The notes under the pieces were generated by a model. It had not been told where the DNA came from. It made no database searches and worked only from the letters and a program-made list of their open reading frames with translations. Positions 26,567-30,317 of a DNA stretch of 32,829 nt are shown here, piece after piece; the stretch's first letter is position 1; each line of letters begins with the position of its first letter. The DNA is from Bacteriovoracaceae bacterium (lineage in GTDB: Bacteria > Bdellovibrionota > Bacteriovoracia > Bacteriovoracales > Bacteriovoracaceae): positions 1-32,829 of the forward strand of contig JBMYPC010000017.1 of the NCBI GenBank assembly GCA_049599895.1, given 5' to 3'. A program made the position numbers and the translations under genes.

Positions 26567-28030
<1,464 letters not shown>

Positions 28031-28050
28031 TAGAAAATTAACTTTAAAAC

Positions 28051-28070
28051 TGGGGGATAATATACCCCCA
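28051..28070 (+). other. GC-rich hairpin after rpoN (pause, processing or terminator-like)
   Basis: TGGGGG-ATAATATA-CCCCCA; no clear U-tract on the + strand. Confidence 0.45.
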
Positions 28071-28085
28071 AAGACCTTCTCATCA

Positions 28086-28398
28086 ACTAAAACCGAAGGT
28101 TTTAGCCCCCGGAGGGGATCAGGAAGCGTCAGTGCCCGGTCTACACGAAGTTGATAACTAGAAGTTAGGAGTTAAAAATAACTTAAAGCCATTAACCTTC
28201 TCATCAAAACAGTTTGATGACCAAAAGGAGAAATATGAGACTAAAAACGTGAGTTTTTAGCCCCCGGAGGGGATTAGGAAGCGTTAGCGCCCGGTACTTA
28301 CGAAGTTGATTACTGGAAGTTAGTCGCAAAAAATAACTTAAAAAATCATTTAACCTTCTCATCAAAACGATTTGATGACCAAAAGGAGAGACATGAGA
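28086..28398 (+). repeat. Diverged tandem duplication (~155 bp x2) of the structured hpf leader
   Basis: Units 28086-28240 and 28240-28398 share TTTTAGCCCCCGGAGGGGAT, AGGAAGCGT, CGAAGTTGAT, GAAGTTAG, AAAAATAACTTAAA, TAACCTTCTCATCAAAAC, TTTGATGACCAAAAGGAGA and ATGAGA. Confidence 0.92.
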
Positions 28399-28761
28399 GT
28401 AACAATCGAATTTCAGCAACTAGAACACACACCTTCTCTTGATGAAAAAATTAAGCAGAAGTCACAGAAGTTTGAAAAATATTTTCGAAACGAAGTGGGC
28501 CTCAAGTGGCGTTGTTATGTGAAAAGCGGAGTCCATCACGCAGAGTGTACGATTCATGGGCATAGAGAAACAATTCATGCCAAAGCTCATTCAGACAACC
28601 TTTATAAGACTCTAGATAAAGTGTGTGAGAAGCTTGAAAAACAGATTAATAAGTCGAAGCAGAAAGTGAAAAATAAGATTCACAGAAAGCAAGGCAACGT
28701 GATTTTCTTTGAGCCTGAGATTGCTTGGGGAGAATTTGAAGCTGAAAAAGAAGCAGCTTAA
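28393..28761 (+). CDS. hpf: Ribosome hibernation promoting factor (HPF/RaiA family)
   Basis: MRVTIEFQQLEHTPSLDEKI...HAKAHSDNLYKTLDKVCEKLEKQI; conserved position after rpoN. ATG 28393 has SD AAGGAG (track start 28372). Confidence 0.92.
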   Translation: MRVTIEFQQLEHTPSLDEKIKQKSQKFEKYFRNEVGLKWRCYVKSGVHHAECTIHGHRETIHAKAHSDNLYKTLDKVCEKLEKQINKSKQKVKNKIHRKQGNVIFFEPEIAWGEFEAEKEAA

Positions 28762-28786
28762 AACAATTAACAAATTAAAACGCTAT

Positions 28787-28813
28787 AAGCCTCCAATATT
28801 TGGAGGCTTTTTT
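28787..28813 (+). terminator. Rho-independent terminator after hpf
   Basis: AAGCCTCCAA-TAT-TTGGAGGCTT followed by a T run. Confidence 0.9.
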
Positions 28814-28826
28814 ATTGAAAGTCTCT

Positions 28827-29049
28827 GCAAAAAAGTGCCAGGCAAAAAAGTGCCAGGTACTTTTAAGAGATTGTAAGAAAACCAAGCATTCAAAGCAATG
28901 TCTCAAAAAAATAATCTTCAAAATTGAAATGCAACTCTTTTAAACTCCTAAGAATTCATTAGAAAATATTTTGAAATCTTACTTTTTCTAAAAAGTACCT
29001 GGCACTTTTTTGCTTTTTTGTGGCACTTTTTTGCCTGGCACTTTTTTGC
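28827..29049. repeat. REP/REPIN-like inverted repeat element with internal short tandem repeats
   Basis: 14-mer GCAAAAAAGTGCCA at 28827 and 28842 (+) and at 29000, 29021 and 29036 (-). Each arm holds the imperfect palindrome AAAAGTGCCAGGTACTTTT (28846-28864; reverse at 28991-29009). Confidence 0.85.
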
Positions 29050-29142
29050 TTTTTTGAAAAAGAAAATTCTTCCATCTTCAGAGAACTTTGTATTGGAGTA
29101 GGGAAATGCATCAATGTATTTTTCAATATTAATGTTCATCAT
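29050..29142 (-). pseudogene. Probable 5' remnant of a gene truncated at the repeat element
   Basis: ATG overlaps the terB-like stop (TAATG). MMNINIEKYIDAFPYSNTKFSEDGRIFFF is protein-like, then reads into repeat-derived AKKCQAKKCH. Confidence 0.5.
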
Positions 29143-29660
29143 TAGCCTTTTAATGATTGGAGTTTGTCGAGAACTGTGGCCTTTGCGGAGATAAAGTGTT
29201 TGTGTTCGAGAAGAAGAGCTTTGGTGATATTTCGAATTTCTTCAGTCTCAACACTCGCAACACCTCCATCACTCGCAGCAAGGGCAAAGAGAGCTTCCAA
29301 AAGATGATAGCGATTATCATTATCCATGCGATCATTAAGGGCGTAGCAATAACGATGGTTTTCAGCTCCAGAGAGTGTCTGGATTTCATCAATGGCAAGT
29401 GTGGCAAGCTTTTCACTTTTTTCTCTTCCAAAGTCTGTCCAAGTTTCAAGAGCGGTGATCATATGATCTTTTTCTTTCGGCTGAATTTTTAAATCTGCAT
29501 AGGCGACTCTCGCTAATAGGCCGGCGATACAGGTCCAAGTGATTAAATCTTCCTCACTTCCATCAGGAAAGATTACTTTCGCCTTACTATGAAGTCCACT
29601 GTGATATGGATCTTTAGAATCATTAGAAGTTAAGTTTTTAAAAGCGTCCCAGAATCCCAT
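29142..29660 (-). CDS. TerB family (tellurite resistance TerB-like) protein
   Basis: AGLLARVAYADLKIQPKE and LLEALFALAASDGGVASVETEEIRNI. ATG 29660 (MGFWDAF) has SD AAGGA; track start is 29777. Confidence 0.85.
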   Translation of the reverse strand: MGFWDAFKNLTSNDSKDPYHSGLHSKAKVIFPDGSEEDLITWTCIAGLLARVAYADLKIQPKEKDHMITALETWTDFGREKSEKLATLAIDEIQTLSGAENHRYCYALNDRMDNDNRYHLLEALFALAASDGGVASVETEEIRNITKALLLEHKHFISAKATVLDKLQSLKG

Positions 29661-29787
29661 AAATTTTCCTTGATCATCATTTTGAGAAGGCATGATATCG
29701 CCGGTAAGTTCTAAATTACAAGTCGAGCATTGCACTAATAAAGTAAACACCAAGTGTTTCACTCCGTCATATGGCAAGCTTTATAAG

Positions 29788-29851
29788 TAGACTAAAAGCG
29801 TCTTTGCTTTTAGGCGCCGCAGGCGACTAGCAAGCGTAAGCGCGCGGTCTA
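29788..29851 (+). repeat. Third copy of the ~60-nt three-hairpin motif
   Basis: TAGA-CTAAAAGC/GCTTTTAG-G-CGCC GCA GGCG-ACTAGCAA-GCG TAAG CGC-GCGGTCTA, colinear with 28086-28143 and 28240-28295. Confidence 0.75.
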
Positions 29852-29896
29852 GCTAAGTCTCAACTTGATATTCAAACTTAGACAAATATATAATTT

Positions 29897-29969: not shown

Positions 29970-30317
29970 TTGAAGGTGAAGACTTTAAACAATATTTGGA
30001 AAGCTCAAAGTGAAGACCATGAAGGTGATTCGGATTTGGCCACCATAGAGGAAGTCAAAGTCAAGAAACCTTCACGGTACAAAGTGCTGCTTCACAATGA
30101 TGACTATACAACTATGGAGTTTGTGATCTTTATTTTGCAATCCATCTTTGGAAAAACCTTTGATGAGGCAAAAGTTGTTATGCTCAAGGTCCATAATGAA
30201 GGTACAGGAGTCTGTGGGATTTATACCCATGAAATAGCTGAAACTAAATCTTCAAAGGTTAGGCAGCTTGCTAAAGAAAATGGTCATCCTCTTCTTTGCT
30301 CCATTGAAGAGGAATGA
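29970..30317 (+). CDS. clpS: ATP-dependent Clp protease adaptor ClpS
   Basis: PSRYKVLLHNDDYTTMEFV, MLKVHNEG, EIAETK, HPLLCSIEE. GTG 29976 is an alternative start. Confidence 0.97.
   Translation: MKVKTLNNIWKAQSEDHEGDSDLATIEEVKVKKPSRYKVLLHNDDYTTMEFVIFILQSIFGKTFDEAKVVMLKVHNEGTGVCGIYTHEIAETKSSKVRQLAKENGHPLLCSIEEE

Follow-up and report, generated by a model that had tools for sequence, protein, structure and literature searches.

Leader controls and dispersed repeats

Leader peptides and upstream ORFs control the genes behind them, as in the ermC, tnaC, and pyrL leaders, where a short ORF with its own Shine–Dalgarno (SD) sequence lies ahead of the gene and ends in a hairpin. Hibernation-factor genes have a structured leader of another kind, the raiA motif RNA of Bacillota and Actinomycetota, found 5′ of raiA/hpf. 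Structured sequences are also dispersed between genes as repeats. The bacterial MITE-like intergenic repeats include Correia/NEMIS, ERIC, RUP/BOX, and RPE. They are about 60–190 nt long, non-coding, and transcribed with their neighbours, can add promoter-like sequence, and sometimes have direct-repeat flanks. The REP, BIME, and REPIN repeats of Proteobacteria are short, extragenic, and high-copy, a REP or REPIN being a single imperfect palindrome of 20–40 nt. REPs near stop codons lower translation. As set out by Di Nocera et al. 2013 (PMC3733652), one end of a REP bears a conserved head, GTAG or CGTC, that is left unpaired, and compensated hairpins, high copy number, and positions after stops are typical of them.

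The locus considered here is the hpf leader of a Bacteriovoracaceae bacterium, in a 32,829-nt stretch of DNA (the window). The initial annotation described a tandemly duplicated hpf leader. That the leader is dedicated to hpf is not supported: the 5′ half of each unit is a repeat dispersed 63–68 times over the genome. What emerges is a new dispersed repeat, structured and belonging to one lineage of Bacteriovoracaceae, and two of its copies remodelled the hpf leader. We favour, at a probability of roughly 0.6, the reading that the leader results from insertion of a mobile repeat and local re-copying, which left two diverged copies, each with an hpf start region, and that it is not an evolved hpf-specific switch. 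For hpf, an apparent special riboregulator is thereby replaced by a history, in which the leader became about five times as long through a mobile repeat and the start region was doubled. The nearest kin in kind are the REP/BIME and MITE-like repeats, and the repeat fails most of the tested defining features of each. Among the papers listed by literature searches, none dealt with repeats of this kind in Bacteriovorax, Halobacteriovorax, or Bdellovibrio.

Layout of the rpoN–hpf spacer

The spacer between rpoN and hpf is 362 nt long here. The features of the locus are as follows.

26567–28030, + strand: rpoN (sigma-54), the gene 5′ of the leader (ORF; Pfam Sigma54_CBD and Sigma54_DBD)
28051–28070, + strand: GC hairpin TGGGGG-N8-CCCCCA directly after rpoN (fold; T run absent on the + strand)
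28074–28086, + strand: 13-mer copy A1 (ACCTTCTCATCAA), abutting repeat copy 1 on its 5′ side and forming the left arm of the 13-nt direct repeat that flanks it
28087–28194, + strand: repeat copy 1 (E1), with P1 28087–28105, P2 28106–28117, P3 28119–28140, and a 3′ extension up to 28194
28195–28240, + strand: decoy (upstream) copy of the hpf start region, with 13-mer A2, hairpin TCATCAAA-ACAG-TTTGATGA at 28201–28220, SD AAGGAG at 28225–28230, and ATGAGA
28235–28252, + strand: predicted 5-codon ORF, MRLKT-stop (read from the sequence; stop within the P1 loop of repeat copy 2)
28241–28352, + strand: repeat copy 2 (E2), with P1 28241–28260, P2 28261–28272, P3 28274–28295, and a 3′ extension up to 28352
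28353–28398, + strand: gene-proximal hpf start region, with 13-mer A3, hairpin 28359–28378, SD 28383–28388, and ATG 28393
28393–28761, + strand: hpf, a short HPF/YfiA-type hibernation factor of 122 aa (ORF MRVTIEF...)
28787–28809, + strand: intrinsic-terminator-like hairpin and T run 3′ of hpf (terminator prediction)
29788–29863, + strand: three-hairpin repeat, third copy in the window, within the divergent region 5′ of clpS (29970–30317) (covariance model R1, 78.1 bits; ClpS Pfam match)

The order of the leader is A1-E1-A2-T1-E2-A3-T2-hpf, where A is the 13-mer, T is the hairpin, SD, and ATGAGA, and E is the repeat with its 3′ extension. The product of hpf matches Pfam Ribosomal_S30AE and TIGR00741 (HPF/YfiA, 62.4 bits against a cut-off of 40.9). 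The nhmmer matches of repeat copies 1 and 2 run from 28087 to 28163 and from 28241 to 28318, and those of the covariance model R1 from 28083 to 28155 (71.3 bits) and from 28237 to 28310 (72.5 bits). The GC hairpin at 28051–28070 is absent from the list of + strand terminators. The third copy, at 29788–29863, lies between a divergent 211-aa ORF on the minus strand (29142–29777) and clpS-clpA.

TRF reports a tandem repeat at 28086–28410 with a period of 155, 2.1 copies, 82% matches, 4% indels, and a score of 446. A repeat search resolves it into a 99-nt segment at 83% identity (28089–28187 and 28244–28342) and a 63-nt segment at 86% (28185–28247 and 28343–28405), the offset between units being 155–158 nt. 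The 28 differences between the units mean that the tandem repeat is no assembly artefact. The duplication is not recent, as had been proposed from the divergence of the units. The sequence AAAAGGAGA-N3-ATGAGA closes both units. In unit 2 its ATG (28393) opens hpf; in unit 1 the ATG (28235) starts ATG AGA CTA AAA ACG TGA, i.e., MRLKT-stop. A strong decoy SD, AAGGAG, stands six nt 5′ of this ATG. In unit 2 the first hairpin is CTAAAAAC-GTGA-GTTTTTAG (28241–28260), and its loop contains the TGA of the minigene (28250–28252). TRF, the repeat search, and direct reading of the sequence thus agree with the initial annotation on the tandem layout, the decoy start, and the minigene ORF. The decoy start is most likely a leftover copy of hpf's own start region.

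The 13-mer ACCTTCTCATCAA occurs exactly at 28074, 28195, and 28353, the three positions first claimed for it. With up to one mismatch it has 4 matches in the window, against 0.11 expected, and at least 4 matches were reached in 0 of 100 shuffles. Elsewhere in the genome, 34 sites outside the leader match it with up to one mismatch, a number that clearly exceeds a rough estimate for random sequence. Codon usage is the probable source of the word, its reverse complement resembling the common codons GAT-GAG-AAG. A further observation is that a segment of the hpf coding sequence, TTGATGAAAAAATTAA at 28439–28454, shows 81% complementarity, across 16 nt, with the leader word TTAACCTTCTCATCAA (28350–28365 and 28192–28207); the segment is a possible alternative pairing partner for the 13-mer.

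A dispersed three-hairpin repeat

When the units were compared by BLAST with their own genome (3.27 Mb, 266 contigs, 97% complete), the first ~80 nt recurred on many contigs and the second half did not. The 5′ ~55–80 nt of each hpf unit thus belong to a dispersed repeat family. Iterative nhmmer searches of the genome gave 35, 58, 65, and then 68 matches at E < 1e-3, where they converged, and R1, a covariance model built on 40 copies, gave 63 matches at E ≤ 0.01.

The core of the repeat consists of three hairpins. P1 has 8 bp, formed by CUGAAAAC, a loop, and GUUUUCAG. P2 has 3–4 bp and a GCA loop, CGYC-GCA-GRCG. P3 is a bulged hairpin, YAG-N-AAGCG-UNAG-CGC-N'-CGGU. In about 20 long copies the core is followed by one more hairpin, which is weak, and by a 3′ module whose end reads ...ACTTGAAATTTAAACCAGTACGACTATATA. 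The three hairpins are supported by covariation. Across the alignment of 40 copies, pairing holds in 90.9% of cells, compared with 77.9% in shuffles (none of 500 reaches the observed value) and 31–46% with slid partners; 83 cells show changes on both sides of a pair, against 28 in shuffles; and RNAalifold finds compensatory changes in 11 of 17 pairs. G.T pairs (43) outnumber A.C pairs (29, of which 17 fall at the single doubtful pair 28–40), and therefore the fold belongs to the strand as given. An alternative P2–P3 helix, considered for one copy, was rejected: the partner in column 39 varies (C in 26, G in 11) and column 51 stays G.

Rfam has no counterpart of the repeat. At E ≤ 10 the hpf units gave chance-level matches only (E ≥ 4), no match was found at gathering score over the whole window, and none at E ≤ 0.1 for four canonical repeat copies. 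As noted at the outset, the leader does not resemble raiA RNA. It is like the raiA motif in being a structured element before a hibernation-factor gene; in contrast to it, the structure here is a genome-wide repeat, and the raiA model has no match at E ≤ 10 in 27900–28900 and none at gathering score in the window.

In 18 copies longer than 100 nt (e.g., L077, L037, and L036), one or two extra hairpin modules are nested directly after the GCAG of P2. These read CCGGTTTGCGG...AAAGGGTGCCAGTGGCAC..., or CAAAAGTGTCCAGCGGACAGTTTTG, and are repeats inside repeats. A module of the nested type (CCGGTYTGC...) also flanks a tRNA-Gly gene on contig C103 of the same genome. The three-hairpin repeat itself has no copy within 400 nt of any tRNA in this genome.

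Comparison with REP and MITE-like repeats

The repeat shares much with the REP/BIME/REPIN class: it is short, structured, extragenic, high-copy (63–68), and lineage-specific, often lies directly after stop codons in operons, keeps its stems by compensatory changes, and forms mosaics with other hairpin modules. The genome also carries a RAYT-like gene, with 30.2 bits to PF01797 (cut-off 23) and 63.6 bits to NF047646, the latter below the cut-off of 80. The element could thus be a REP/BIME-type repeat moved as single-stranded DNA by this tyrosine transposase, the hairpin modules nested in 18 copies being REP-like and giving a BIME-like mosaic. We consider this a distinctly improbable account. 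The core, at 55–60 nt, is made of three unlike hairpins and not of one palindrome. GTAG is absent from the 40 aligned copies, and CGTC occurs only inside a paired strand of P2, in 18 of 40 (T at column 30), so that the alignment has no conserved unpaired head of either kind. Unlike REPINs and BIMEs, the copies are mostly single and not in inverted pairs, 16 lie between divergent genes, and there is a sense-strand bias. Lagging-strand targeting also predicts a stronger fit to GC skew than the 44 versus 24 copies found. Finally, the repeat does not flank the RAYT-like ORF (L089:1468-2043), the only gene of this kind in the genome, which carries inverted copies of a different repeat, AAAAGTGCCAGGTACTTTTTAG; a link between the repeat and this gene was accordingly rejected.

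The word that flanks the RAYT-like ORF recurs in the window. Directly after the hpf terminator, at 28827–28870 and 28990–29056, there are arrays of AAAAAGTGCCAGG(TAC) words in opposite orientation, and these contain the same word that, inverted, flanks L089:1468-2043. The form AAAGTGCCAGG occurs 25 times in the genome, both strands counted. The arrays look like the REP/REPIN repeats of the RAYT-like transposase.

With the MITE-like repeats the element has in common its length, its lack of coding capacity, its predicted transcription with neighbouring genes, its promoter-like sequence, and, at some copies, direct-repeat flanks. In contrast to a MITE, it has no terminal inverted repeats (in two long copies, only the internal hairpins are inverted), and no related insertion sequence was found in its own genome. 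No autonomous element with the same ends was found either: of 20 matches to the 3′ module, 19 have a 5′ module at most 400 nt away and one is an orphan, and no pair of 5′ and 3′ modules in this genome encloses a gene. The search for a mobilising enzyme gave none. For repeat biology, this is a structured family outside both the REP and the MITE definitions, sense-biased and often starting exactly at the stops of essential operons.

Placement in the genome

Gene contexts were counted on crude ORF calls. In co-directional gaps, 24 copies are sense and 7 antisense; divergent gaps hold 16 copies and convergent gaps 7. The next downstream gene is on the same strand as the copy in 43 cases and on the opposite strand in 15. 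By Pfam, sense copies occupy the L11/L1, S12/S7, S19/L22, IF-1/S13, S11/rpoA, and rpoA/L17 spacers, those of groES/groEL, acpP/fabF, and atpG/atpD, and sites after S9, clpP, and dksA and before clpS and phoH. The antisense copies are genuine, e.g., one in the ftsY–zapA gap and another adjoining a flagellin gene. Replication direction explains the orientation no better than transcription direction: copies lie on the G-rich strand in 44 cases versus 24, a fit no better than that to the neighbouring gene.

For 26 copies, a same-strand gene ends at most 60 nt upstream. In 9 of these, its stop codon falls exactly at P1 model positions 2–4 (C[TGA]AAAC or C[TAA]AACC), and in five more it lies within −1 to +5. 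Examples of a stop in P1 are found in L040 (groES/groEL), L046 (acpP/fabF), and L032 (IF-1/S13 and S11/rpoA). This would follow if stop codons are the target of the repeat, or if essential operons tolerate no other insertions.

The sense bias and the stop codon in P1 could reflect a function at the RNA level. It may be asked whether the three-hairpin element is a host RNA module, i.e., the binding or cleavage site of one RNA-binding protein or RNase, which spread by mobility to about 65 transcripts and came to stand twice at hpf. All core-only copies inside operons are sense, the structure is conserved with its G.U pairs on the sense strand, and orientation fits the neighbouring gene at least as well as it fits GC skew. 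Against this, seven copies are antisense to real genes, P2 or P3 is interrupted by nested hairpin insertions in 18 copies, the sites are not orthologous between genera, and genomes differ in copy number, from 1 up to about 65. We know of no partner protein. A host module of this kind is rather unlikely to account for the family.

A bolder version makes the element a transposable RNA control module, whose first hairpin, with its stop codon, would sense the terminating ribosome or recruit one RNA-binding factor. About 65 transcripts, among them ribosomal-protein operons, groESL, clpP, clpS, dksA, and hpf, would be tied into one post-transcriptional circuit, with the hpf leader, whose 5-codon ORF has been kept and closes in the second of two modules, as its most elaborate case, a switch responding to ribosome availability. 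We rate this idea as speculative and improbable.

Distribution among relatives

The initial annotation proposed a ribosome-sensing control of hpf, a claim that can be examined for conservation. By the refuting condition that the annotation itself named, it fails: none of 19 relatives has the unit or the minigene. Their rpoN–hpf loci have no R1 match (0 of 19), and their spacers, 10–128 nt long in 18 and 299 nt in one, have no sequence in common with the leader described here. On the sequence comparisons, a regulatory role of the leader in the control of hpf may be regarded as unsupported.

In the genomes searched, the repeat itself is confined to a few members of the Bacteriovoracaceae. Among 60 other genera of the family, weak R1 matches occur in two, G044 (3–4) and G015 (1). 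Under stricter filters, none of 140 other genomes sampled from the phylum has a match at E ≤ 1e-4. When 185,579 species genomes were scanned with a pattern, one more MAG of the Bacteriovoracaceae (G077, 7 matches) proved to hold true copies. Thus, three genomes besides its own have the repeat, with 7, 4, and 1 copies. Four non-Bacteriovoracaceae genomes that matched the pattern lack P1 and P2, and these were set aside as chance matches. Metagenome contigs yielded nothing closely related to the leader: a 19-mer was found at 12 loci, none of which aligns with the leader locus beyond 22–31 nt. A phage origin was also discarded, as the 15 matching viral loci match the search word alone and viral contigs hold no copies of the repeat. 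The copies in G077 and G044 adjoin genes unrelated to the sites in the own genome, e.g., PhoD, FolE2, RibD, and PaaA; unlike a riboswitch or another cis-regulatory RNA, the element is not upstream of orthologous genes across genera. The distribution is the pattern of a lineage-specific proliferating repeat and not that of a conserved regulator of particular genes.

Origin of the hpf leader

The repeat is dispersed in the genome and absent from the spacers of relatives. Therefore, a repeat most likely inserted into the leader and duplicated its target, after which the locus was re-copied locally. The flanks of the two copies fit this reading. An exact 13-nt direct repeat brackets copy 1 (28087–28194), and the proposal that the 13-mer is a scar of insertion or duplication is probably right. 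Copy 2 (28241–28352) is bracketed by a direct repeat of 46–49 nt, within which lie the SD hairpin and, as ATGAGA, codons 1 and 2 of hpf. The two copies are mutual nearest relatives, with 87% core identity, against at most 83% to any other copy, and E1 and E2 share a 3′ extension that is absent elsewhere in the genome.

We suggest that one copy of the repeat entered the hpf leader with a 13-nt target duplication. The second copy could have arisen in two ways. In the first history, a block of repeat, leader, and ATGAGA would have been duplicated in tandem via the microhomology CTAAAAC/GTAACAA, in keeping with the 2.1 copies that TRF counts. In the second, another copy would have landed after codon 2 of hpf, a long target duplication keeping the gene whole. 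In either case hpf would be translated from the proximal SD and the ATG at 28393, and ribosomes loading at the distal start region would synthesise MRLKT and terminate within P1 of copy 2.

Two other loci serve as precedents for the second history, a second insertion with a long duplication. The copy between the S19 and L22 genes has a 10-nt repeat, AGAAGAAATA, on both sides, and the original TAA stop is split. The copy in G015 (L093:1440-1667) lies inside a 63-nt direct repeat of period 101, in which the final 10 nt of a tRNA-Gly gene (minus strand) are present a second time; the tRNA gene stays whole. Where a MITE has a target duplication of fixed length, the flanking repeats here vary, being 10, 13, and about 46–49 nt at three copies. 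In a few cases, long duplications of differing length lie on either side of the repeat and leave the target gene whole.

Target duplication is not general across copies, as flanking repeats do not exceed controls. With flanking direct repeats of at least 9 nt, 7 of 62 copies score 20 or more, against 4 of 62 controls, and short repeats of 6–7 nt flank 31 of 68 copies, against 28 and 35 in controls. Most copies have no flanking repeat of 9 nt or more, and therefore transposition with target duplication is documented for a few copies only.

Apparent constraint on the two units

The differences between the two hpf units are unevenly spread. Of the 28, stems, SD, and start (83 positions) hold four, and loops and linkers (75 positions) hold 24 (hypergeometric P = 5.6e-6 for differences avoiding stems, SD, and start, the structure having been defined after the fact). 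All four stem differences keep pairing: a double change from C-G to A-U in P1, one from C-G to U.G, and one from G.U to G-C. No change is seen in the locus-specific hairpins or in the SD and ATG of the decoy, whereas adjacent loops differ at about one position in three. Since 24 of the 28 differences fall in loops and linkers, both hpf units look constrained, and the sequence suggests constraint on each of them. The retention of the decoy SD, the decoy ATG, and the locus-specific hairpins counts against a neutral leftover. Hairpin-templated correction, or faster mutation of unpaired bases, could mimic part of the stem conservation. If the constraint on both units is due to selection, the leader would be an example of a selfish repeat recruited into translation control.

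A doubled leader that acts in the translational control of hpf has to be weighed here. Ribosomes finishing MRLKT would stop in P1 of copy 2 and remodel the structure downstream, coupling hpf to ribosome availability; or else one protein would bind the two identical SD hairpins. The pattern of differences agrees with such control, as stem pairing, SD, and ATGAGA are kept, and so is the strong decoy SD at its six-nt distance from the ATG. The whole leader folds better than shuffles (z = −3.78). In both copies of the SD hairpin, CCUU pairs with AAGG of the SD in the predicted fold, and therefore the native hpf start region is partly occluded. A stop of the upstream gene in P1, as for MRLKT, also occurs in 9 of 26 other copies.

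There are several points on the other side. The structured part is a dispersed repeat and not hpf-specific, a comparable leader is found in none of the 19 relatives, and the stem conservation has the mutational explanations just given. The stop of the minigene lies about 140 nt from the SD of hpf, with no conserved long-range pairing between them. The minigene resembles the ermC, tnaC, and pyrL leaders as a short ORF with its own SD that ends in a hairpin ahead of a gene. Unlike those ORFs, it consists of the gene's own first two codons run into a repeat. Unlike a uORF attenuator, the leader has no terminator-like site on the + strand between the minigene and hpf. Translational control by the doubled leader is therefore, in our judgement, unlikely, and we retain insertion and re-copying as the source of its two start regions.

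Promoter-like sequences

Each unit also contains a sigma-70-like promoter (TTGATA or TTGATT, N17, AAAAAT), and tandem hpf promoters had been put forward as another explanation of the leader. The palindrome TCATCAAA-N4-TTTGATGA would then be the operator of a repressor. The site TTGATA-17-AAAAAT at 28151–28179 scores 9 of 12, both hexamers are nearly conserved in unit 2, and the half-sites of the palindrome are identical in the two units, 158 bp apart, with a differing 4-nt spacer. Promoter-like sites are nevertheless at chance level, 3 against 2.7 ± 1.6 expected, and in many copies elsewhere the −35-like TTGA belongs to the fourth hairpin of the repeat. Within the genome, exact copies of the palindrome are found only at hpf and near-matches mostly inside genes, which gives no sign of a regulon; an operator regulon was rejected. 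Tandem promoters under a repressor are thus a very improbable basis for the doubled leader.

Promoter-like sequence is also seen at the ends of the long form of the repeat. About 20 copies (e.g., L039:1497-1615) end in TTGAAA-N16-TATATA, a good sigma-70-like promoter pointing outwards; in front of several downstream ORFs it is 14–20 nt away from the ATG. On its 5′ side the long form is nearly always flanked by TATAC, and the long copies are bracketed by TATA-like words. These ends may act as a portable promoter, or they may mark a target duplication of TATA-like sequence.
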